NCBI GenBank assembly: GCA_951812955.1
Contig: OX638340.1
Span: 3,392,001-3,456,000 of the forward strand
DNA from: an uncultured Gemmatimonadota bacterium
GTDB lineage: Bacteria; JAAXHH01
Length of the DNA: 64,000 nt
Direction: 5' to 3'
Below the pieces are notes generated by a model. That model worked only from the letters and a program-made list of their open reading frames with translations. It was not told the origin of the DNA and did not search any database. Both the position numbers and the translations under genes were made by a program. This document shows positions 2,578-17,087 of this stretch, in pieces (the stretch's first letter is position 1; every line of letters begins with the position of its first letter).

Positions 2578-4257
2578 CTATCCCGGCCCGTCTCCTCTCA
2601 CCCTGGGGCCTCGCTTGAACCGGTCCGCGTCCGGCATCTCGCCTACCGGGATCTCCACCACGGTCGGTCCATCTTCGGCGAACCCTTCGCGTATCGCCTC
2701 GCCCATCTCGCCGGGCGTGTGCGCCCGTAACCCCCTGGCGCCGAAGGATTCGACCAGCTTGACGAAATCGGGATTCCGCAGGTCGGACGCGATAACCCGG
2801 TTGCCGTACTGTTCCTTCTGCATCCGTTTCACGTTGCCGTAGGCATTGTCGTTGAATACGAGCGTGACCAGTCCGATGCCGTGCTGCACCGCCGTGGCCA
2901 GTTCCTGCACAGCGAACATGAACCCGCCGTCGCCGGCGATCGCCAGGACCGGTTTGTCCGGATGGGCGACCTTGACACCCAGCGCCGTGGGAAATCCCCA
3001 GCCCAGGGTGCCCTGGTAACCGGTGGATATGAAAGTATAGGGTTTGTACACCGGCATAACCTGCCGGCTTGCGTAGCCGACCTGGGTCAGCTCTTCCACG
3101 AAGATGCCGTCGTCGCCCAGTTCTTCGCGGATGACCCGGAGATAGGCGGCCTGGGGTTCCAGGGCGGCTGCGAGTTTTTCGTCTGTTTCTTTTTTTAATG
3201 CCAGCATCTCGGTTTTTAATGACGGCCGTCGCCGGTTGTGCTTCTCGACCAGGGGTATCAGCTGAGGCAGGGCGTCTTCGGTACGCGCCGTGATGGGCAG
3301 GTCCGGCATGGCGATCCGGTCGTGGGCGGCGCGATCCGCATCGATGCGGACGATGGTCAGGTCCTCGTCCACGCCCCAATTGAGTTGCGGGATCTCCATT
3401 CTGGATCCCAGGGCGAGGGCGACGTCCACCTTCGGCCACAGCCGGTGTCCCGACGGGTTGGTGATACTCAGGTAGTGGCGGCTGTCCAGCACGCCCCGTC
3501 CGGTGCGGTAGCTGATGACTGGCGCCTGGAGCAGTTCGGCGAGTTGCCGGACTTCTTCGGAAACGTTCATGGCGCCGCGGCCGACGAAGATCATGGGGTT
3601 CTCTGCGCGGCCGAGGATGCGCGCGGCCTGCGCCAGCGCTTCCGTGTCAACCGGGTCGGGCGATATGGGCAGCGGACCGGGAATGCGGTCCACCCGTCCC
3701 CCGGTCGCCAGTACGTCCCAGGGGCATTCCAGTCCCACGGGGCGCGGCCTGCCCGAATTCAGTTGCCGGATGGCCTCTGCCGTCCTGGACGGCGCCCCGG
3801 CGGTGCTGTCGATCCGGGCGGACCACTTGGTCAGGGACCGCAGCACGCCGAGCTGGTCGTTGATCTCGTGCAACTGGCCGACTCCGCGGCCGATAAACCT
3901 GGAAGGGATCTCGCCGGTCAGGCACAGGACCTTCGCGTTGGTGGCGTAGGACGTGCACAGGGCGCCGGTGCTGTTGAGAAACCCCGGTCCGGGCACCACG
4001 TTGTAGACGCCGGCACGGTCTGTCGAGAGGGCATACCCCAGGGCCATGTAGCCCGCGCCCTGTTCGTGGCGGGTGTGGATTACCCGGATATGGTCGCGGT
4101 GGTCGAAGAAGGCGTTGTAGAGCGCGTCGTTCTGCACGCCCGGCAGGCCGAAGACCGTTTCGATCCCATGGGATATCAGGGTACGGACGATCGCATCGGC
4201 GGTAGTCATTTCCTGCATGGAAGTCGAGGGAGCGGTAACGGCCGCGCGGTCGGTCAC
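2578..4257 (-). CDS. Thiamine-pyrophosphate-dependent enzyme, acetolactate-synthase-like family
   Basis: 559 aa. N-terminal pyrimidine-binding domain (ADAIVRTLISHGIETVFGLPG) and C-terminal TPP motif IAGDGGFMFAVQEL...NDNAYG. The start may be an internal Met at 4218. Overlaps the upstream gene stop by 4 nt. Confidence 0.85.
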   Translation of the reverse strand: MTDRAAVTAPSTSMQEMTTADAIVRTLISHGIETVFGLPGVQNDALYNAFFDHRDHIRVIHTRHEQGAGYMALGYALSTDRAGVYNVVPGPGFLNSTGALCTSYATNAKVLCLTGEIPSRFIGRGVGQLHEINDQLGVLRSLTKWSARIDSTAGAPSRTAEAIRQLNSGRPRPVGLECPWDVLATGGRVDRIPGPLPISPDPVDTEALAQAARILGRAENPMIFVGRGAMNVSEEVRQLAELLQAPVISYRTGRGVLDSRHYLSITNPSGHRLWPKVDVALALGSRMEIPQLNWGVDEDLTIVRIDADRAAHDRIAMPDLPITARTEDALPQLIPLVEKHNRRRPSLKTEMLALKKETDEKLAAALEPQAAYLRVIREELGDDGIFVEELTQVGYASRQVMPVYKPYTFISTGYQGTLGWGFPTALGVKVAHPDKPVLAIAGDGGFMFAVQELATAVQHGIGLVTLVFNDNAYGNVKRMQKEQYGNRVIASDLRNPDFVKLVESFGARGLRAHTPGEMGEAIREGFAEDGPTVVEIPVGEMPDADRFKRGPRVRGDGPG

Positions 4258-6179: not shown

Positions 6180-7229
6180 CTACAACTGGTTGAGCAGCAT
6201 CAGTTCGCCGGGAAAGGGATGGAGGTAGGTCTGGTCTTTCAAGTAGGCGATGTCGAATTCGCGGACGTAGTGCCGCAGCATGACGACCGGGACGATCAGC
6301 GGGAGCAATTCCTCCCGGTAATTCTGAATCATGCGGGTCAGTTCCCGCCGGGTACGGCTGTCGAGCCGGTCGGAAACGTAGCCCGCCATGTGTTGCAACA
6401 CGTTGGTGTGGTTCCGCCGTGACGGGGTTCGTTTCATGACCGAGTTGAATTCGTCCAGGTAGGCATTCGCCAGGGCCTGGGTGGTCGCAAATCGTTCCGG
6501 TTTCGCCAGCAGCCGGCCGAGGCGGCGGGTGCCCTCCTGGCTGTGGGCCATGAGCAAGTACTTGTAGGCCCGGTGATATCCCATCAGCGATTCCCTGGTC
6601 AGGCCCGTAGTGACCAGTTGCAGCCAGCGGTAATAGGCGAACACCCGGCTGATGAAGTTCTCCCGGATCCTGAGGTTGTGCAACCGCTGCTCTTCTTCCA
6701 CCGGCAGATGGGGGAGGACTTCCATCAACCGGCGGGCGAATATGCCCCGCCCTTTTTTAAGTGTGGCGCCATCGGGCTGGACGACGGGTACGCGCTCCTT
6801 GCCGCAGGAGGGGGATCGGCTTTTCAGGATGTATCCGCTGAGCCTGGCCTGCTCCAGGGTCTGAACACGCTGCCGGGCGAACCAGTCCACCACGTCCGTG
6901 TGGTCGACGCCCGCCTTGGTCAGCATCCGGATGTCGCCGTCGACCCGCGTCAGCTGCACCGTCTCCCGCGGCATGCCCATGCCCGCCTCCACTTCCGGAC
7001 ATACCGGGACCCACTCCACGTACCGGCCGACCACGTCCACCAGGTAGTCGTCCCGTTTGTGCCCGCCGTCGTAGCGGACTCTCTCGCCGAGCAGGCAGGA
7101 GGAGATACCGATGCGCACGGGCAATTCGGCCCGGTGAATATCCAGCAGGGGTATTTCGCTCGAGGAAGTCCCGCCAAATACCGATTCGCTCATGATTCGT
7201 CCATTATGCTCTTCGCATTGCGGTTTCAC
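6180..7229 (-). CDS. DUF523 (TudS-like [4Fe-4S] desulfidase fold) fused to DUF1722 (YbgA-like)
   Basis: N-terminal GISSCLLGERVRYDGGHK...CPEV Cys pattern of DUF523, then a DUF1722-like C-terminal half. The likely start is Met at 7193. Confidence 0.7.
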   Translation of the reverse strand: MKPQCEEHNGRIMSESVFGGTSSSEIPLLDIHRAELPVRIGISSCLLGERVRYDGGHKRDDYLVDVVGRYVEWVPVCPEVEAGMGMPRETVQLTRVDGDIRMLTKAGVDHTDVVDWFARQRVQTLEQARLSGYILKSRSPSCGKERVPVVQPDGATLKKGRGIFARRLMEVLPHLPVEEEQRLHNLRIRENFISRVFAYYRWLQLVTTGLTRESLMGYHRAYKYLLMAHSQEGTRRLGRLLAKPERFATTQALANAYLDEFNSVMKRTPSRRNHTNVLQHMAGYVSDRLDSRTRRELTRMIQNYREELLPLIVPVVMLRHYVREFDIAYLKDQTYLHPFPGELMLLNQL

Positions 7230-7243
7230 TCATGATGCGCTCG

Positions 7244-7990
7244 CTACCATCGGTCGATGGCTCCGAGAAGCAGTTTCTGTTCCTTCGTTCCCTTTTCCCG
7301 TATGGCCGTCACCCGGGGTCCGTCGAAGGGTTCCCTGGACTTCATCCAGGCGTTCTGGTAGCACATGAGGCAGACACGGCGGTTCCGTTCCGACTGGTTG
7401 GCGGCCCCGCGGTGAAACAGCCAGCCGTCGAACAGGACGGCCTGTCCCGGCCTGGCCAGCACGTGTTTTTCATCGGGGAACCGGGCATGCGTCTCCGGCG
7501 GCTTGAAGGGCGCCCTGTGGCTGCCAGGCACGATGACGATAGGACCGTTCTCCATGGTCAGCTGGTCCAGGTAATATCCGCAGTTGACCTGTCCCGGCTC
7601 GTTGCCGTAAGGCGGCGGTTCCGGGTCTTTGGGCCAGGGAATGTCCCGGTGCCAGTTCTGGTCCGGCTCCCCGGGTTTAGTCACCCGCGCCGTCGCGCTG
7701 TGCAACTGCACGCAATTGCCCAGGATGGCCTTCATACGGTCCAGGACGGGCGGGTTGTCGAGGAGGAAGGCGAACCGGTCGTCTTCCTCAAGGAGTTGGT
7801 GCGTGAAGGACTCGCCGCGCCGCTGGTAGGTCTCGTCCAGGGCGTCCCGGAGCTGTTCGACCTGCGGGACGGTCAACGCGTCCTCCACCACGAGATAGCC
7901 CCACTTCCTGAAGAAGGCGGCTTCCCGTTCCAGTTCCGGCGTCAGGTCCGGATTCATCCGCGGACCGACGATTTCGGCGTCATATCCCAT
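7244..7990 (-). CDS. PhyH-family Fe(II)/2-oxoglutarate dioxygenase, paralog 2
   Basis: 248 aa. WGYLVVEDAL... and a WHRD iron-binding motif. Confidence 0.8.
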   Translation of the reverse strand: MGYDAEIVGPRMNPDLTPELEREAAFFRKWGYLVVEDALTVPQVEQLRDALDETYQRRGESFTHQLLEEDDRFAFLLDNPPVLDRMKAILGNCVQLHSATARVTKPGEPDQNWHRDIPWPKDPEPPPYGNEPGQVNCGYYLDQLTMENGPIVIVPGSHRAPFKPPETHARFPDEKHVLARPGQAVLFDGWLFHRGAANQSERNRRVCLMCYQNAWMKSREPFDGPRVTAIREKGTKEQKLLLGAIDRW

Positions 7991-8064
7991 AGGTATCCCT
8001 GGTCGGTCGCGCGCCTGCTGGCCGGCACGACCTCCGGCACGCTACACGCCGTCCGCTCGCGACA

Positions 8065-9189
8065 TCAGAAGAAGCCGAGGTCTTCCCGGGCCGCCCGACG
8101 GGCCGTCTCCTCGTCCAGCGTCACACCCAGGCCCGGCTTCATGGGCAGGTCGATGTGCCCGTTCCGGATCAGGTCTCTTTCCACCGTCAGCGTATTCCAA
8201 ACTTCGTTGTCCAGGTGATGGAATTCGAGCACCTGGAAGTTGGGCACCGCCGCGCACAGGTGACACACGGCCACCGTGCCGATGGGTCCACAGATGTTGT
8301 GGGGCGACAGGGGGATGTAGTACATGTCCGCCAGGTCGGCGATTTTCCGGCCCTCGAGCAGTCCACCCGCCTTGGCGTGATCGGGCGAGATGATGTCCGC
8401 CGCCTGCGCCTCGATGAGGTCCCGGAATCCGTGGCGCGTGTAGAAGTTCTCCCCGGTGCAGATGGGGACGCGGGTAGCCTGGGTCACTTTCGCCATGGCC
8501 TCGATGTTCTCCGGCGGCACGGGATCCTCCAGCCACATCAGGTCCAGGTCCTCGCAGGCGTAAGCCACCTTGAGTATGTCCACCGGGGCGTAATTCCAGT
8601 GGGCGTCGATGAGCAGGTCGGTATTGGGGTTCAGCGAATCCCGAAGTGCGGTGATGACGTCAATGAAGAAGGCCACGTCGTCGTTGCTGATGGTCCGGTT
8701 GTACCGGTCCCGCCGGTTCGGCCGCGGATCGATGTCGAACTTGATGGCGTCGAAGCCGCGTGCTTCAACGGCCCGGGCTTTCTCCACATAGGCTTCCGGC
8801 GTCTCGTCATCCCCTGCGTGGCAGTCGTTGTAAACGCGGATGCGGTCCCTGAACTTGCCGCCGAGCAGTTGCCAGATGGGCACGCCGCAGGCCTGTCCCG
8901 TGATGTCCCACAGGGCCATTTCAATCCCGCTGATGGCGCTCATGACCGCGCCCTGGTAGAAACCGGACGCCGACATGGAAGACATCATGTCGTGGAAGAG
9001 CTTGTCCACGTTCCGCGGGTCCTGGCCGATGAGCGCCCGGTCCCGCAGCCTCGGGTCGGTGACGATCTGGTGGACCCCGGCGCCGTGATAGGCTTCGCCG
9101 ATGCCGACCAGCCCCTCGTCGGTTTTGACTTTTACCAGTACCCAGGGCATGGGCTGGAGCAGCACGGCCCCCACGTGTGTGATTTTCAT
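8065..9189 (-). CDS. Enolase-superfamily (mandelate racemase / muconate lactonising enzyme) sugar-acid dehydratase-like protein
   Basis: Starts MKITHVG..., then GIGEAYHG, ALWDI, PIWQLLGG and KFDIDP. The pattern resembles D-mannonate/galactonate dehydratases. The track ORF extends 28 aa further upstream to 9273. Confidence 0.8.
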   Translation of the reverse strand: MKITHVGAVLLQPMPWVLVKVKTDEGLVGIGEAYHGAGVHQIVTDPRLRDRALIGQDPRNVDKLFHDMMSSMSASGFYQGAVMSAISGIEMALWDITGQACGVPIWQLLGGKFRDRIRVYNDCHAGDDETPEAYVEKARAVEARGFDAIKFDIDPRPNRRDRYNRTISNDDVAFFIDVITALRDSLNPNTDLLIDAHWNYAPVDILKVAYACEDLDLMWLEDPVPPENIEAMAKVTQATRVPICTGENFYTRHGFRDLIEAQAADIISPDHAKAGGLLEGRKIADLADMYYIPLSPHNICGPIGTVAVCHLCAAVPNFQVLEFHHLDNEVWNTLTVERDLIRNGHIDLPMKPGLGVTLDEETARRAAREDLGFF

Positions 9190-9327
9190 TTGGACTCCAT
9201 GACTGCCTGACTGCCGGACAATGGGTTCCCACGCTTCGCCCGCCCGATCCTCAAAGGTGCGAACGCGGTACACTAAAGACGCAAGCGCGGTACACTACAG
9301 CACGAGCGCGGTACATTCAGTAACCGA

Positions 9328-9939
9328 TCATTGCATCCTGGTCAGCGCGTCCCGGGCATTGAGATAGGGTACGGATCGCTCCAGGAACGTTTCAACCAGG
9401 TGACCGGGCGTGAGTTCGGAAGTATCGATGTCGAACTTTCGTTTGATCCAGGACTGCGCGACTTCCTCTTCGAACCGTTCCAGGACGTGCGGCACGTCCT
9501 CCGATGGAACCAACTGGCGTGGATGGGGATCCTGCTCCATGCGCCGCCGGATCACCTCGGGACGTGCGTGAAGATGGACCAGGATCGCGTCGCCGGGCAT
9601 GTCCGGTTCGTACTCACGCACCGCGATATTGATCCCCGGATAATAGTAACAGGGACCGTACACCATCTCCTCGATATGGAACCCGCCCAGGAGGATGTGG
9701 TCGAACTTGTGCATCAGCCGGACGTGGTACACGATCTGGAACCGCTGAAACCGTTCCTTTATGGCCGGCAGCATGTCGATGAAGCCCTGCTGCTCCTCCT
9801 CGTCGAGGTGGTAGGCGTCCGGGATGGTGAAGTGGTCGTCCAGGTGGTGATGAACGCCCCGCTCGTTCCCCCAGTTGTAGAGGCCGTCGATCAGCGTCGT
9901 GACCCCCGAGTATTCGCAGCCTGCGGCGATCAACCGCAT
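9328..9939 (-). CDS. Hypothetical protein. The N-terminal AGCEYSGVTTL resembles a sulfotransferase/P-loop PAPS-binding motif, but this is weak.
   Basis: 203 aa ORF with balanced composition, set inside a tightly spaced co-directional gene array. No confident family assignment. Confidence 0.5.
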   Translation of the reverse strand: MRLIAAGCEYSGVTTLIDGLYNWGNERGVHHHLDDHFTIPDAYHLDEEEQQGFIDMLPAIKERFQRFQIVYHVRLMHKFDHILLGGFHIEEMVYGPCYYYPGINIAVREYEPDMPGDAILVHLHARPEVIRRRMEQDPHPRQLVPSEDVPHVLERFEEEVAQSWIKRKFDIDTSELTPGHLVETFLERSVPYLNARDALTRMQ

Positions 9940-9970
9940 GGACGCTCCTTTCGTCGATATCGGAATGGTT

Positions 9971-11089
9971 TCAATCCAGTTCCTCGTAAGCCTGCGTATA
10001 CCGCTGCAGCGCGTCGTAATCCAGGTCGCAACCCAGTCCCGGCTTCATTGGCGTGGGCACGTGGCCGTCGACAAAGGTAATGGGTTCGAGGATCAGGTCG
10101 TCCTCCCGGGTCCACCCGCCGACGAAATCGGACGCCATGGTGCAGTTCGGCGCCGCGGCCGCGGCATGGACGAAGGAGGTGTCCGAAATCCCCAGGTCGT
10201 TTCCCGATCCGTGCCAGCACGGGAGTCCGGCCGAGGCGGCCGTGGCGGCATTGCGCTGGAAGCCGAACATGCTGCCACCCAGGTTTACGCAATCCACCAC
10301 GCCCCGGCCCCCGTCGGCCTGCAGGGCGCGGACCACGCCCGGCCCGTCTCCCAGGTGCATGGCCAGGGGGAAAGGGATGGCCCCGTGGATCTCTTCGTAA
10401 CCCTCGATATCGGACTTGGGTATGGGGTCCTCGAACACCTCCACGTTTCCCAGCGGTTCGAGGCGCCCCGCCAGTTCGATGGTCTGCGCGGCGGTGTAGA
10501 ACCGTTCGTTGGGGTCCACGGTCACCTTGAATCCGGGCCCCGCCACGTCGCGCATGGCCTTCAGGCGCTCGTACATGGGTTCCTCGAGCCGGCACTTGAT
10601 CTTGACCCCCGTAAACCCTTGCCGCATCCCTCGTTCCACGGCCCTGGCGCCGTCCTCCGGCGTCTGGTGGCCCATCCAGTAATCGGCGCGGACACGGTCG
10701 CGGACGGCGCCTCCGAGCAACGCATGCACGGGCAGTTCGCGGACCCGTCCCACGAGGTCCAGCACGGCCATCTCGAAGGCGTCGTACGCCGGACCGGTAC
10801 CTACCGTGATGTCGTCGGCCGCCCTTTCGGCCCGCCGTCCGAAGATATCCTGCGGGGCCACGTCCTCGGGGTCGCGGCCGATCAGCAGCGCCGCGCCTTC
10901 CCTGACCTCCTCGATGGGTACGCCGCGCCAGGTCTCCCCGATGCCCGAGAACTCGGTGTCCGTATCGACACGGATGATGTGCTTCGGGACCTCGTCCCAG
11001 CCGGCCTTCGCAGCGTATTCAGGGCTGTGGACGCGGCCCGGTATGGTGGGTACGACGACGGTCCAGACTGCAACGGATGTGATCTTCAT
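9971..11089 (-). CDS. Enolase-superfamily (MR/MLE) dehydratase-like protein, second paralog
   Basis: 372 aa. MKITSVAV... with the capping/barrel organisation of the MR/MLE family. Confidence 0.75.
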   Translation of the reverse strand: MKITSVAVWTVVVPTIPGRVHSPEYAAKAGWDEVPKHIIRVDTDTEFSGIGETWRGVPIEEVREGAALLIGRDPEDVAPQDIFGRRAERAADDITVGTGPAYDAFEMAVLDLVGRVRELPVHALLGGAVRDRVRADYWMGHQTPEDGARAVERGMRQGFTGVKIKCRLEEPMYERLKAMRDVAGPGFKVTVDPNERFYTAAQTIELAGRLEPLGNVEVFEDPIPKSDIEGYEEIHGAIPFPLAMHLGDGPGVVRALQADGGRGVVDCVNLGGSMFGFQRNAATAASAGLPCWHGSGNDLGISDTSFVHAAAAAPNCTMASDFVGGWTREDDLILEPITFVDGHVPTPMKPGLGCDLDYDALQRYTQAYEELD

Positions 11090-11122: not shown

Positions 11123-12316
11123 TCAGTTGTTCCGCCACCCTGCGATAAAAGTGTCCACATTCAGGCAGGACGGCATTTCCTCGAAGTAGTAGTGCATGGG
11201 GTCCGACTGAAACCCTGGCACGTACTGTACGGTTTCTGATTGCACCATGCCGTCGAGTGGGGCGAAGCGCTGCCAGAGGGTGTCCAGTTCGCCGTCGGCA
11301 AACCGGGGTTTCAGGTCCTCGTCGTGCGATATGTCGCTGCCGTAGTGCGGCCGGACGGGATGTGCGGAGAACTTCATCTTGTAGACAATCTTGGACAGGA
11401 GCACGACGCACACGATACGCCCGATCTCGCCGGGGTGCAGCGCGGCAAGGCCTTCCTGGAAAGCGTCCTCGTCCCGGCCGATGACGGCGCGGAAAATGGA
11501 CTCTATCAGGTCTGACTCCTCGTCATACCTGCGCTTGACGTCCTCGAAAACGGCCTGCAGATCGGAGGGCAGGCATTCGGTGAAGGAGAGATCCCTGAAG
11601 GTGCGGTTGACGTAGGGGAAGATCGGACCGCCGTAGGACCGGTAGCCCAGGTGGATGGTGCGCCTCATCCGGGCGCTGTAATTGCTCCCCCAGTGCAGGA
11701 TCGTATTGGTATAGACCACCCCGTCGCCCGCATTCAACTCGACCTGGACGGCGCCGGGCAGTACCTCGCGGGGATTCCGTCCCAGGCAGCGGTTCTCTTC
11801 GGCCGTGTTCCCCCGTTGATGACTCTTCGGCACGACCCAGAGCACGTTGTCATCGTAGAGCGGGATGTTCCACTGGAGATAACCGGGGGCGTTGTGCAGC
11901 AGGTCATCCTGCAGGCCCCTGAGCGGCGCCTGGTCGATGGGATGTATGTCCCGGTGCCACGCCGCCGGACCGTGGTCTTCCACCGGGTTGCACATGAAGA
12001 AGAAACCGGTGTTTCCCGCGGCTTTCGCGTTCATGATGCGCCGGCTGACCCCCATGGTATGCTCGTGCAGGCCGAAGGCCATGGTATTGGCCGTGTCCTC
12101 GTCCACGAGGGATTCGAAGTTCAGCCGGGGCTGGGAACTGACCGCCCACTGGCCTCCGGGCGGATCGTCCGGTTTCCTTTCCCTGGCCCAGATTTCCTTC
12201 TGACGATCCACCATGCGCTCGAAGCTGTCCCTTAACGGGTCTAGCCAGTCAGGGGGAACCACCCCACGAAGCACGATGAAACCGTCTTCGAACAGTTTCC
12301 GAGGATCGAAATTCAT
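11123..12316 (-). CDS. PhyH-family Fe(II)/2-oxoglutarate dioxygenase, paralog 3 (long form)
   Basis: 397 aa. AAWHRDIHP iron motif and PhyH-like core. Confidence 0.75.
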   Translation of the reverse strand: MNFDPRKLFEDGFIVLRGVVPPDWLDPLRDSFERMVDRQKEIWARERKPDDPPGGQWAVSSQPRLNFESLVDEDTANTMAFGLHEHTMGVSRRIMNAKAAGNTGFFFMCNPVEDHGPAAWHRDIHPIDQAPLRGLQDDLLHNAPGYLQWNIPLYDDNVLWVVPKSHQRGNTAEENRCLGRNPREVLPGAVQVELNAGDGVVYTNTILHWGSNYSARMRRTIHLGYRSYGGPIFPYVNRTFRDLSFTECLPSDLQAVFEDVKRRYDEESDLIESIFRAVIGRDEDAFQEGLAALHPGEIGRIVCVVLLSKIVYKMKFSAHPVRPHYGSDISHDEDLKPRFADGELDTLWQRFAPLDGMVQSETVQYVPGFQSDPMHYYFEEMPSCLNVDTFIAGWRNN

Positions 12317-12599
12317 GTAAGGTTTACCGCAAAAAGATGCGACGCGGGACGATGCCCGCGCCGTAGAACAGGGTTAACGTTCAATCTACATCGGCCCATG
12401 GGAATGTCAAGAGTGGGAAGACACAAATTGCGTCTTTGTTTGACTCTGAGCCGGCACCGCCCTGAGACTGCCGCGTGGACGGGTATTTCGTCTTGCAGGA
12501 AGCCCGCCGCGAAATTAGATTACGGTCCTGTAATTCAATAAACCCTGGTCCGGTTCGTTTCCACGAATACCGGTTTTCTTCCTTGTCGACGGAGTGCTC

Positions 12600-14279: not shown

Positions 14280-17087
14280 ATGCGGCAGGGCGACGCCATC
14301 CTGCATTACCGCATCGTAAAAAGCCTTGGTAAGGGCGGCATGGGCGAGGTCTACCTGGCCGAGGACACCCGCCTGAAACGGCAAGTCGCCCTCAAGGTGC
14401 TGCCGGAGGACCTGGCCCGCGACCCGGCGCTGCTGCAGCGGTTCCGTGTGGAGGCCGAGGCGGCCGCCAAGCTGAACCACCCGAATATCGCCCAGGTCTT
14501 CGCCACCGAAGAGGCGCGCCTGGAAGACGACCGTACCGGCAAGGACGGTGAACGAGGCGACAGCGGCCGTACCATTAACTTCATTACCATGGAATACGTG
14601 TCCGGACGGCCCCTTCATGAACACCTCTCCGGGAAGCCCCTCCCCCTCGATACGTTCTTCGACTGGTTCCTGCCCATTGCGGACGCCCTGGATCACGCCC
14701 ACGAGCGGGGCGTCGTGCACCGGGATATGAAACCTGCGAACGTCATGATTTCGGACGAAGGCGTCCCCAAGATCCTGGATTTTGGCCTGGCCCGGGTCGT
14801 CGCCGGGGCTTCCAATGAAACCGATGGCGGAGGACCGACGATCAGTCTTACGCAGGCCGGGGCCGTCATGGGCACCCCGGCGTACATGTCGCCCGAACAG
14901 GCGACCGGCAGCCACGGCGATCATCGGAGCGACATATTCAGCCTGGGCGTCATGATGTACGAGGCCCTGGCGGGCGCCCGGCCCTTCACCGGCGACAACT
15001 ACGTAACCGTCATCAGCAGTACCCTGAAAGATGACCCGGAGCCGGTGAGCAGCGGCAACGGCGAAGTGCCTCCCGCGCTGAACCGGGTCGTCCGTCGATG
15101 CCTTGGCAAGGACTCGAGGTCCCGCTACCAGTCCGTGCTCGACGTGAGACACGCCTTGGCCGACAGCCGGGAAGAATACGAGGCTGGAACCACCACCGGA
15201 ACGACCAGCGACGCTTCCAGGCCGGTACGGGCGGTTTTCCTCCTGCGGCGTCCCGAGGTGCTCGGAGCCTGCGCCGCGTGCCTGGTCGCCGGGGCGTTGA
15301 TCGTTGCGGCCTTGATGGGGGCATTCGAAGAAGAATCGGCCGCGCCGCTGCGCAGATTCCAGGTGAGCCTGGACAATCTGGGCCGGGACAACGCGGCAAT
15401 CTCTCCGGACGGATCGCTGCTTGCCTATGTGCGTGAAAACCGCCTCTGGGTGCGTTCCCTTGACCAGGACGAGGGCCGGGAGATTCCAGGTACCGACGAC
15501 ATAGAACAGATATTCTGGTCATCCGACAGCCGCCAGATCGGTTACCTGGTCAGACGATCGATCTGGAAGGTCGCGGCGGACGGCGGCGGACAGGTGCATC
15601 TCTGCGATTTGCCGGAACGTGATCTGAGGGGTATTTCCTGGGGCGGCGACGGCCGGATACTGTTCGCCATGGCCAGCATGAGATCCGGTGGGGGGCTTTA
15701 TGCCGTGTCTGACCAGGGCGGCGATCCGGACCGCCTGCTGGAACCGGATCCGGCGAATGCCGAAAGGGCGTTGCAGTCCCCGTTGAACCTGTCCGAGTAC
15801 GGCCTGCTCATGTACGCGGTGGTCACAGTCTCCGACGATCCGCAGGAGATCGCCGACCTGAGCGAACGTTACCGGGGAAACGGGGATCTGAGCATGGCGA
15901 TCTCCATGGCTCGAATCACCACGTCCCGCATTGCCGTGGAGTTTCCAGGTCCGTCCGGATCGCCCGGTTCCTCCCGCCGAATTCTTCCACTGGAGGGCGA
16001 TTTCCTTGCCGTAGCGGGATATGCGTCCGGCCACCTCCTGTACTACCGGGAGACCACGACCCATTCCGAGGATGATCTGTGGGCCGTGCCCTTTTCACCT
16101 CGGGTCGGTGAACTGACGGGCGAGGCCTTCAGGGTTGCCCGGCGCGTCAATACGCTCAGCGTGTCCGACAACGGGATCATGGTCTATCGGAAGTTGTCCG
16201 AGTCCCCGCAGCAACTGACCGTGGTCGACCGCCGCGGCCGGATCGAACGGATCATTGGCCAGCCCCAGGAAAGGATCACAGAACTGGTCCTGTCCCCCAC
16301 CGAAAAGCAAGTCATGGTGGAAAGCGAAGAAGGCGTCCTGGCCGCGCTGTGGCTGTACGAGATCGAAAGCGGTATCGGCAGCCGGCTTACCTCTGCGGAC
16401 TTGAACTACAGCCGGCCGAGCTTTACGCCCGACGGCGGTTCGGTCGTGTTTTCGGTTTCTCCGGCGGTGAATCCCGGACTTGCGCGCGGGAACGCGCTCT
16501 TCATGCGGATGGATCTGGACGTCCTGGACGAAATGAAACCCTTCTCGGCTGATTCGCTGAGGGGGTGGGCGCCCACGCTCTCGAGAGACGGCCAGTTCCT
16601 GGTTTACTTCCATCAGCGTCAGGTTCAGTTTATTTCCACGGAGGAAGGCGCCAAGCCCCAGGTGCTCGTGGATGGCCAGGGGAGGGTGGTGCAGACGGCC
16701 CTGTCCCCGGATAACCGATACCTGGCCTACGTATCGAACCAGGGGCCCGGCTGGCAGGTATACGTGACCGGGTTTCCCACTGGTACGGGGCGTTGGCAGG
16801 TTTCGTCGAACAGCGGCTGGACACCCCGCTGGAGTCCCTCGGGCGAAGAGCTGTTTTACGTGGAGGACAACCGGTTGATGGCCGTTCCTGTGGTGGATGG
16901 ACCCGGTTTCCGGTTCGGCCGTCCCGAAGCGCTCTTCGAAGGCGTCCAGGCGGGCGCAGATGACCTGCGGTTTCCCGGATACGAGGTCTCCGCCGGCGGG
17001 GAGTCGTTCATCATCGCGGCCAACGCGGAAGAAACCCGTCCATCCCTCACCATCGTGCAGAACTGGACGCGGGAATTCGACCCGTGA
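14280..17087 (+). CDS. Serine/threonine protein kinase with a C-terminal PD40/TolB-like beta-propeller
   Basis: 935 aa. Kinase motifs GKGGMGEVY, VALK and HRDMKPAN, then a TM segment and a long WD40-like/PD40 repeat region. Confidence 0.85.
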   Translation: MRQGDAILHYRIVKSLGKGGMGEVYLAEDTRLKRQVALKVLPEDLARDPALLQRFRVEAEAAAKLNHPNIAQVFATEEARLEDDRTGKDGERGDSGRTINFITMEYVSGRPLHEHLSGKPLPLDTFFDWFLPIADALDHAHERGVVHRDMKPANVMISDEGVPKILDFGLARVVAGASNETDGGGPTISLTQAGAVMGTPAYMSPEQATGSHGDHRSDIFSLGVMMYEALAGARPFTGDNYVTVISSTLKDDPEPVSSGNGEVPPALNRVVRRCLGKDSRSRYQSVLDVRHALADSREEYEAGTTTGTTSDASRPVRAVFLLRRPEVLGACAACLVAGALIVAALMGAFEEESAAPLRRFQVSLDNLGRDNAAISPDGSLLAYVRENRLWVRSLDQDEGREIPGTDDIEQIFWSSDSRQIGYLVRRSIWKVAADGGGQVHLCDLPERDLRGISWGGDGRILFAMASMRSGGGLYAVSDQGGDPDRLLEPDPANAERALQSPLNLSEYGLLMYAVVTVSDDPQEIADLSERYRGNGDLSMAISMARITTSRIAVEFPGPSGSPGSSRRILPLEGDFLAVAGYASGHLLYYRETTTHSEDDLWAVPFSPRVGELTGEAFRVARRVNTLSVSDNGIMVYRKLSESPQQLTVVDRRGRIERIIGQPQERITELVLSPTEKQVMVESEEGVLAALWLYEIESGIGSRLTSADLNYSRPSFTPDGGSVVFSVSPAVNPGLARGNALFMRMDLDVLDEMKPFSADSLRGWAPTLSRDGQFLVYFHQRQVQFISTEEGAKPQVLVDGQGRVVQTALSPDNRYLAYVSNQGPGWQVYVTGFPTGTGRWQVSSNSGWTPRWSPSGEELFYVEDNRLMAVPVVDGPGFRFGRPEALFEGVQAGADDLRFPGYEVSAGGESFIIAANAEETRPSLTIVQNWTREFDP

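Follow-up and report, generated by a model that had tools for sequence, protein, structure and literature searches.

A conserved kinase-fold protein without the Walker A lysine is encoded beside a galactonate-dehydratase-like gene in an uncultured Gemmatimonadota bacterium

What does the small protein encoded between two enolase-superfamily genes in an apparent operon of an uncultured Gemmatimonadota bacterium do, and to which protein family does it belong? We addressed this question for a gene, hereafter the target, on a stretch of 64,000 nucleotides (nt) of contig OX638340.1 (assembly GCA_951812955.1, positions 3,392,001 to 3,456,000), hereafter the window. A first-pass annotation made from the DNA letters and a list of open reading frames (ORFs) had described the product as an orphan with no confident family match, rich in His and aromatic residues, with a P-loop-like N terminus that resembles the phosphosulfate-binding loop of small sulfotransferases and with a role tied to neighbouring dioxygenases. 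We find that the target belongs to a widespread family, as yet unnamed, of small proteins with a P-loop kinase fold. It is kinase-like, a sulfotransferase is not supported, and conventional kinase action is unlikely.

Results

The target is a conserved gene without a family model

The target ORF begins with ATG and encodes 203 amino acids (aa); 31 nt separate its start from the stop codon of the upstream enolase-superfamily gene, and a strong ribosome-binding site precedes the ATG. On the plus strand, an overlapping ORF (9331..10080) is the kind of antisense artefact that GC-rich coding DNA commonly yields. A search of 5.8 billion proteins returned 594 homologous clusters at 90% identity (E <= 1e-3), the best 120 of which are 64-100% identical to the target and 203-237 aa long, and a HMMER scan of 1.84 billion representatives returned 438 family members (50% identity representatives, E <= 1e-3). 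Among the species-representative genomes of GTDB, one per species, 364 confirmed stretches match the target. The labels of the 80 loci kept from these 364 are metagenome-assembled genomes (MAGs) of Latescibacterota, Gemmatimonadota, Opitutales, Chloroflexota, Poribacteria, Zixibacteria and Handelsmanbacteria, often from marine or sponge samples. Pairwise ratios of nonsynonymous to synonymous substitution (dN/dS, Nei-Gojobori) against 14 orthologs were 0.06-0.26, and 0.06-0.10 for the orthologs at dS 0.6-0.85. Because low dN/dS values come together with the 594 clusters and the 364 genome stretches, the target is not a chance ORF; it is a real gene under strong purifying selection. Conservation in related genomes, the lack of which the first-pass annotation had named as a refutation, was found, and its word "orphan" had to be given up in all but one sense: the family is large and conserved, and only unannotated.

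Scanning the target against Pfam gave no match, and the sole NCBIfam match was a sub-threshold one to shikimate kinase (PRK13947) over residues 117-187, in agreement with the earlier statement that no family could be assigned with confidence. A look-up found no record of the exact window protein, and a literature search of incomplete coverage found no prior description of the family. The window holds no second copy of the target, and the 150 representatives listed include no fusion proteins, their length being at most 283 aa and any N-terminal extension short. As for composition, His is enriched (14 of 203 residues, 6.9%), as had been claimed, while the aromatic content (Tyr, Phe and Trp together, 10.3%) is only mildly high.

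The target has the fold of small P-loop kinases

An AlphaFold2 model of the target, built with 40 homologs, reached a mean predicted local distance difference test score (pLDDT) of 86 and a predicted template-modelling score (pTM) of 0.83. Its parallel sheet has five strands; the P-loop follows strand 1, and strands 4 and 5 are connected by a helical lid. Foldseek comparison with the PDB matched this model at probability 1.0 to deoxynucleoside kinase, YorR (BSU20280, Bacillus subtilis SPbeta prophage, PDB 2axp / 3kb2), thymidylate kinase, archaeal adenylate kinase and shikimate kinase. The figures tabulated beside the structural matches were 16.5 for YorR, 14-15 for thymidylate kinases, 13.7 for archaeal adenylate kinase, 13 for deoxynucleoside kinases, 12.1-12.7 for the NadR kinase domain, 11.7 for both chloramphenicol phosphotransferase and shikimate kinase, and 11.5 for gluconokinase. 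Profile searches of the PDB reached YorR, at E 6.5e-4 when the alignment of close homologs was used and at 9.4e-6 when the diverse alignment was used; they also reached a Fap7-like adenylate kinase at E 3e-4.

In 39 diverse family members, individual weak Pfam matches fell on AAA_18, SKI (PF01202; 13/39, E >= 9e-4), AAA_28 (PF13521, NadR/Ttd14; 8/39, sub-threshold, best E 3.6e-4), Thymidylate_kin and dNK. The window protein itself had no AAA_28 match at E <= 1, one UniRef homolog carries the name "NadR/Ttd14 AAA domain-containing", and the shikimate kinase match in NCBIfam reached 20 bits, where the cut-off is 204, and covered only the C-terminal half. The target shares its fold class with YorR, the thymidylate and deoxynucleoside kinases, the shikimate and gluconate kinases and the NadR kinase domain. 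The P-loop-like N terminus noticed at first was supported in this way, with GCEYSGVTT at the Walker A position of a fold matched to nucleoside-type kinases, and the structural search proposed at the same time led to kinase folds and not to a sulfotransferase.

The Walker A lysine is missing in the clade of the target

GCEYSGVTT lies between strand 1 and helix 1, the site of the Walker A motif (GxxxxGK[ST]); the lysine of this motif makes contact with the beta and gamma phosphates. The target reads G7-C-E-Y-S-G12-V13-T14, with Val in place of Lys. In the alignment of 40 homologs, G7, C8, Y10, G12 and V13 are invariant, and V13 is found in 121/121 close homologs. Position 13 is occupied by K, T, V, I, A or G across the wider family, and the loop of 39 full-length distant members (27-49% identity) follows the pattern GCEY[SAT]G[K/T/V/A][ST]TL. 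Since the Walker A lysine is lacking and the scores lie below every curated threshold, we assign the target to no named family.

When positions 13 and 38 (window numbering) were tabulated over the family representatives, a pattern emerged. Representatives with T13 carry K38 in 26/29 cases (motif HDHWKIP) and R38 in one more; among the representatives with K13 (about 50), position 38 is never basic; and P0154, a V13 member outside the DDHF clade, has R38. Within the DDHF clade of the window protein, V13 or I13 goes with T, S or A at position 38 (DDHF[TS]IPD), and Lys or Arg occurs at position 13 or 38 in 0/121 sequences. By this tabulation, the clade of the window protein appears to be the only large clade seen to lack a basic residue at both sites. 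A rough neighbour-joining tree placed the V clade as sister to an I13 sequence, nested in the K-type DDHF subgroup, and a path from K to I to V by single-nucleotide steps therefore fits. In the same tree, the T13/K38 state belongs mostly to one large clade, and separate losses of the lysine led to A13, to G13 and to another V13 lineage.

These substitutions suggest that, to an unusual degree, the target family can dispense with the Walker A lysine or replace it. Comparison of the V-type sequences with their K-type sisters in the DDHF subgroup revealed no clade-specific compensating basic residue; H122 was considered as such a compensator and rejected, as it is also present in some K-type members. 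With no lysine at either position 13 or position 38, conventional transfer of the ATP gamma-phosphate would therefore be unlikely.

The other presumed active-site motifs are conserved

The H31-D41 motif after strand 2 occupies the site of the DxD motif, or catalytic Asp, of shikimate-, gluconate- and nicotinamide-riboside-type kinases, and its T38 takes the position of the Lys of T-type relatives. At the end of strand 3, G86, F87, E90 and E91 are invariant in the close clade. Neither the alignment of close homologs nor that of distant ones shows any variation at the lid arginine R133; R131 and R132 are also present in the window protein, and H139 of the lid is invariant in the close clade. The IDTS loop aligns to the "DT" of the Fap7-like adenylate kinase and of YorR, and probably lies where kinases of this class have their adenine-binding loop. 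Near-invariant throughout the family are E9, Y10, G12, D35, H36, P40, H72, Y98, A125, R133, D148, S163, D172 and T173, to which the close clade adds H32, D34, D41, H44, K61, E62, R63, Q65, R66, G85/G86, H88, E90, E91, Y94, Y99-100, R108 and H139.

The Walker A and Walker B motifs of shikimate kinase, the latter consisting of three Gly plus DxD, have been defined (PMC2593004), and in our alignment D34-D35-H36 after strand 2 together with G85-G86 after strand 3 resemble this type. The DR[YHF] motif of thymidylate and deoxynucleoside kinases is absent, since the D-R-F that follows strand 3 in YorR aligns in HMMER to G-G-F of the target. We considered whether the Walker B Asp had been lost and rejected this, as the DD and GG pairs fit a Walker B of the shikimate-kinase style and only the lysine is clearly missing. 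As far as these motifs indicate, the kinase active site would be intact except for the lysine.

The target is linked to one specific dehydratase gene

On the minus strand of the window, the gene order is PhyH, MR_MLE, target, MR_MLE, PhyH (Table 1), followed by a 2-thiouracil-desulfurase/DUF1722 protein, a further PhyH protein, a D-2-hydroxyacid dehydrogenase and a thiamine-diphosphate (ThDP) enzyme. The operon position described in the first-pass annotation is accordingly correct: the target lies on the same strand as, and between, two MR_MLE genes, with PhyH genes beyond. To compare neighbourhoods, ORFs were called with a heuristic ORF picker and clustered in 89 fetched loci, 70 of which encode distinct target proteins. 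In 29/70 distinct loci the target has an MR_MLE gene as its direct neighbour, and in 31/70 one lies within two genes, against 3/685 of the more distant genes of the same loci, an enrichment of about 100-fold for adjacency. PhyH-like genes are adjacent in 2/70 loci and within two genes in 22/70, with a background of 19/685.

The adjacent MR_MLE gene is nearly always an ortholog (68-98% identity) of the downstream window gene, hereafter the partner gene. It is found at +1 with a gap of -4 to about 100 nt (4-nt overlaps occur in several loci, namely L011, L012, L029 and L047), at -1 on the same strand (L086, L087) or divergently oriented (L066, L077), and MAGs with the labels Latescibacterota, Gemmatimonadota and Litorilinea (Chloroflexota) show this linkage. 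The conserved link is thus to one specific dehydratase-like gene rather than to the PhyH dioxygenases, and the enzymatic role tied to the neighbouring dioxygenases that was first suggested for the target is only partly right. The best PDB match of the partner dehydratase is 2qq6 (E 3e-90), whose deposited name, "mandelate racemase/muconate lactonizing enzyme-like protein", specifies no activity, and its match to the NCBIfam galactonate dehydratase lies below the cut-off. The partner ORF extends to a GTG at 9273, crossing a repeat region; orthologs are about 374 aa long, and the ATG at 9189 (MKITHVG...) is likely the true start.

Other neighbours of target orthologs include UxuA-like, Ldh_2 and JmjC-less unknown proteins. 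Distant relatives, sampled from metagenomes in 84 loci and mostly T-type, often stand in tandem arrays (104 copies in the 84 loci), near DHDPS-family aldolases (12 genes in 9 loci), PTE-family lactonase-like proteins, SnoaL, MR_MLE and BNR proteins. Arrays of two or three T-type paralogs are found in L090 (8001-9429, 47% identity) and in L127, L138 and L141 (around 7000-9000). In L096 a K-type and a T-type copy are combined with MR_MLE, BNR_2 and DHDPS genes; the order K-type, MR_MLE, BNR_2, T-type, DHDPS is found in one locus. The theme that recurs in these neighbourhoods is sugar-acid or lactone catabolism.

A separate observation concerns a class-V aminotransferase gene that lies 21 nt downstream of the target ortholog in L054 (8628-9944) and in about 15 similar Latescibacterota loci. 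The N-terminal RRDFF of its product resembles a twin-arginine signal, and the co-transcription of an apparently exported pyridoxal-phosphate enzyme with a cytoplasmic kinase-fold protein would be an odd pairing.

Table 1. Coordinates of the target, its motifs and the neighbouring features in the window
Feature	Coordinates	Strand	Basis or remark
CDS (coding sequence) of the target, 203-aa Lys-less P-loop kinase-fold protein	9328..9939	minus	ORF list, homologs, dN/dS, AlphaFold2 model
Shine-Dalgarno-like AAAGGAG	9945..9951	minus	5 nt upstream of the target ATG; from sequence
Walker A / P-loop G7-C-E-Y-S-G-V13-T-T15	9895..9921	minus	alignments of close and wider homologs
V13 codon GTC	9901-9903	minus	sequence
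H31-H-L-D34-D35-H36-F-T38-I-P-D41 after strand 2	9817..9849	minus	invariant columns; position 13/38 table; PMC2593004 motif
L83-L-G85-G86-F-H88-I-E90-E91, end of strand 3	9667..9693	minus	YorR alignment, invariance, secondary structure
Lid segment A125-R-P-E-V-I-R-R-R133-M-E-Q-D-P-H139	9523..9567	minus	aligns to shikimate kinase and YorR profiles
I171-D172-T173-S174 loop after strand 5	9418..9429	minus	D172 invariant, T173 nearly invariant
Partner gene, galactonate-dehydratase-like enolase-superfamily protein	8065..9189	minus	Pfam MR_MLE_N and MR_MLE_C
Upstream enolase-superfamily gene, glucarate-dehydratase-related / racemase-like	9971..11089	minus	linked to the target only in the clade of the window protein
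PhyH-family dioxygenase, 397 aa, first gene of the apparent operon	11123..12316	minus	position kept in the clade of the window protein
PhyH-family dioxygenase, 248 aa, downstream of the partner gene	7244..7990	minus	often at +2
Sigma-70-like promoter match TTGACA-16-TAGATT, upstream of the first PhyH gene	12383..12410	minus	consensus scan only

Other features of the operon

No terminator-like site was found flanking the target. Between the target and the partner gene, positions 9260-9315 hold a tandem repeat with a period of 22 nt (2.6 copies, Tandem Repeats Finder score 77), the core of which, TGTACCGCG on the minus strand, occurs three times at intervals of 21-22 nt. Elsewhere in the window there is one further copy of TGTACCGCG, against 0.6 expected by chance. 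The two-copy pattern (TGTACCGCG, 10-16 nt, TGTACCGCG) had no match in 176 fetched loci, and the repeat is therefore probably not part of the conserved module; it may have arisen by slippage or serve as an operator specific to the strain.

Inside the operon, the gene at 6180-7229 (minus strand) encodes a fusion of 2-thiouracil desulfurase (PF04463) and DUF1722, and its position is conserved in the clade of the window protein. The ThDP enzyme (2578-4257, minus strand) scores above the cut-off for NCBIfam PRK08266 (733 bits), and its next-best match, below the cut-off, is 5-guanidino-2-oxopentanoate decarboxylase. The ThDP-enzyme matches, together with three PhyH dioxygenases and the D-2-hydroxyacid dehydrogenase, suggest that the substrate broken down by the operon is not a plain hexonate but an acid derived from an amino acid or of the guanidino/betaine type. 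Just outside the operon, on the plus strand (14280-17087), lies a gene for a 935-aa protein whose N-terminal sequence, judged by eye, is like that of a Ser/Thr protein kinase; this gene recurs near the target in the clade of the window protein.

Discussion

The results reported above describe a family whose Walker A lysine varies, within it a clade that carries a basic residue at neither of two sites, and a gene neighbourhood in which one dehydratase recurs beside the target. We lean, by a modest degree, toward the view that the target is a kinase-family protein that acts on, or together with, a hydroxy-acid intermediate of the partner dehydratase by a non-canonical mechanism. The two genes would form a module that is inherited in hydroxy-acid or sugar-acid catabolic clusters. 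The backbone amides of the P-loop and T14 would hold an anionic group, either a nucleotide phosphate or the phosphate or carboxylate of a substrate; D35/H36 would stand at the position of the catalytic base, which acts on the acceptor hydroxyl in related kinases; and conserved basic residues (Arg and Lys) in helix 2 and in the lid may bind a carboxylate-bearing ligand related to the substrate or product of the dehydratase. That the target is still an enzyme, with a non-canonical catalytic arrangement, we put forward as a tentative suggestion. In SAR202 bacteria, which have large enolase-superfamily expansions, non-phosphorylative routes are thought to be used and no kinase-dependent pathway was detected (PMC10444878), and the occurrence of kinase-fold genes in such loci is noteworthy for this reason.

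Several other explanations have to be weighed against this view. The sulfotransferase and kinase fold classes are distantly related, and sulfotransferases that use 3'-phosphoadenosine-5'-phosphosulfate (PAPS) have a P-loop-like strand-loop-helix in an alpha/beta fold without a canonical Walker lysine position. A PAPS-dependent sulfotransferase with GCEYSGVTT as its 5'-phosphosulfate-binding loop would agree with the Thr that sulfotransferases carry at the Walker-lysine-equivalent position (PKSGTT, to be compared with SGTTT in T-type relatives) and with the abundance of sulfatases in the host lineages. Nonetheless, we consider it very improbable. No sulfotransferase is among the 25 Pfam families listed for the 39 diverse members, none appears among the Foldseek matches or, up to E <= 10, when the PDB was searched with the family profile, and with SGVTT aligned to the SGTT[WF] of the sulfotransferase loop (PKxGTT[WF]) the catalytic lysine is replaced by Tyr10, which like E9 is nearly invariant in the family. 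By inspection, neither the close nor the diverse alignments conserve a 3'-phosphate-binding motif (the Arg...Ser on a strand or helix, GxxGxxK, or the RKGxxGDWK type), and 203 aa with a kinase lid match a nucleoside-monophosphate-type kinase. On the fold, Pfam, PDB-profile and motif evidence, the sulfotransferase reading of the loop was rejected. It is also improbable, if less so, that the target is a nucleoside or nucleotide salvage kinase-like protein of the YorR, deoxynucleoside kinase, thymidylate kinase or NadR type with merely incidental catabolic neighbours, even though these are its best structural and sequence matches and both the AAA_28 matches and the UniRef name point to NadR. The G-x-E-x-S-G-K-[ST]-T-L loop of K-type members resembles the NadR kinase P-loop, with a Glu inside it, and D-D-[FH]-F after strand 2 is shared with Nrk1. 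The target clade, however, differs from NadR in lacking the lysine and an adenylyltransferase or helix-turn-helix domain, in its gene neighbours and in matches that stay below threshold; it differs from thymidylate and deoxynucleoside kinases (10-17% identity) in lacking both DR[YHF] and the Walker lysine. YorR is only 14-16% identical to the target, has no known link to the enolase superfamily, in contrast to the dehydratase-linked target, and is itself poorly defined in function. Incidental neighbours are also hard to reconcile with the roughly 100-fold enrichment of one dehydratase ortholog, with tandem arrays of paralogous relatives in catabolic loci, and with a family limited to a few hundred species of lineages that degrade polysaccharides or dissolved organic matter, which is not a housekeeping distribution.

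Two further explanations differ in whether catalysis has been kept. The target could be an active hydroxy-acid kinase of the shikimate/gluconate-kinase kind (SKI, AroK/GntK) that phosphorylates a sugar acid or 2-keto-3-deoxy acid, another residue or a metal replacing the lysine; we regard this as unlikely. In its favour, the remaining nucleotide and acceptor motifs (T14/T15, D34/D35/H36, G85/G86, R133, D172/T173) are invariant, dN/dS is low, and the apparent relocation of the lysine to position 38 in T-type relatives indicates that a positive charge matters in the family. The context is rich in acid-sugar enzymes, with which the hydroxy-carboxylic acid substrates of these kinases are compatible. 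The likeness extends to sub-threshold matches over strand 4, lid and strand 5 of the target and to the acidic pair after strand 2, the glycines after strand 3 and the lid arginine (PMC2593004). The target differs from these kinases in the missing Walker lysine and RPLL motif, in scores far below the cut-offs (20 vs 204 bits) and in a helix 2 (residues 47-78) that is a much longer insert. Against an active kinase stands the lack, in all 121 clade sequences, of a basic residue at position 13 or 38, and no clade-specific substitute stood out relative to the K-type sisters. A K15M mutant of shikimate kinase is on record as PDB entry 1e6c, and mutants of this kind are essentially inactive. An aldolase or other consumer of a phosphorylated product is not evident in the window operon. 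The target might instead be a pseudo-kinase, a non-catalytic ligand-binding or regulatory subunit of the adjacent dehydratase that senses a nucleotide or metabolite or stabilises the enzyme. The repeated, independent loss of the Walker lysine across the family, the tight two-gene module with its 4-nt overlaps and the survival of the linkage through rearrangements would fit such a subunit, which we hold to be a minority possibility; the many invariant polar and charged residues at presumed active-site positions are more typical of an enzyme, the dehydratase is not nearby in many loci, and the representatives listed include no fusions. Plant SKL1 and SKL2 are a precedent in the same fold class for neofunctionalised proteins under purifying selection without the ancestral activity (PMC2593004), with the difference that SKL1 kept the P-loop and lost substrate and lid residues; the target shows the reverse, with the lysine lost and the lid and presumed acceptor-site residues kept. 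Finally, the family may be an unrecognised branch of P-loop proteins in which the Walker lysine is dispensable, being relocated to position 38 or abolished, and in which the valine clade is a new enzyme or an obligate ligand-sensing subunit of the dehydratase. As an enzyme it would combine the P-loop anion hole with an Asp/His base on a sugar-acid-type substrate, without classical gamma-phosphate transfer. We find this doubtful.

Our preferred explanation, a kinase-family protein that works non-canonically with the intermediate of the partner dehydratase, has difficulties of its own. An adjacent MR_MLE gene is absent in about 55% of the distinct loci, gene calls in the fetched loci are heuristic, and some 18 Latescibacterota loci carry instead a divergent GFO/IDH/MocA oxidoreductase gene and a downstream class-V aminotransferase gene. 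The spatial roles given to D35, H36 and K38 come from motif position only, and the covariation of T13 with K38 reflects few independent events because this state lies largely in one clade. To our knowledge, acid-sugar routes that depend on enolase-superfamily dehydratases use PfkB or ASKHA kinases or none, not P-loop kinases.

The fold of the target is ordinary and its function is proposed from context; a lysine-less, dehydratase-linked clade and the exchange of K, T and V at position 13 appear moderately surprising. Should the target prove to be no more than a pseudo-kinase or an enzyme of minor importance in salvage, the outcome is a correction of annotation only, to a kinase fold that is neither a sulfotransferase nor an orphan. 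Beyond this, a conserved family for which Pfam and NCBIfam hold no model gains a testable handle, and the Walker lysine, retained, relocated or lost within one family, offers a natural experiment for P-loop catalysis and the evolution of pseudo-enzymes. The linkage to an uncharacterised galactonate-dehydratase-like ortholog, with 2qq6 as its closest structure, provides a starting point in the enolase superfamily. If the valine clade does belong to an unrecognised lysine-dispensable branch, it would add a hidden part to a sugar-acid catabolism that is supposed to be "non-phosphorylative" in marine Latescibacterota, Gemmatimonadota, Opitutales, Chloroflexota and sponge symbionts. The finding may thus aid the understanding of carbon turnover by uncultured marine and sponge-associated heterotrophs.

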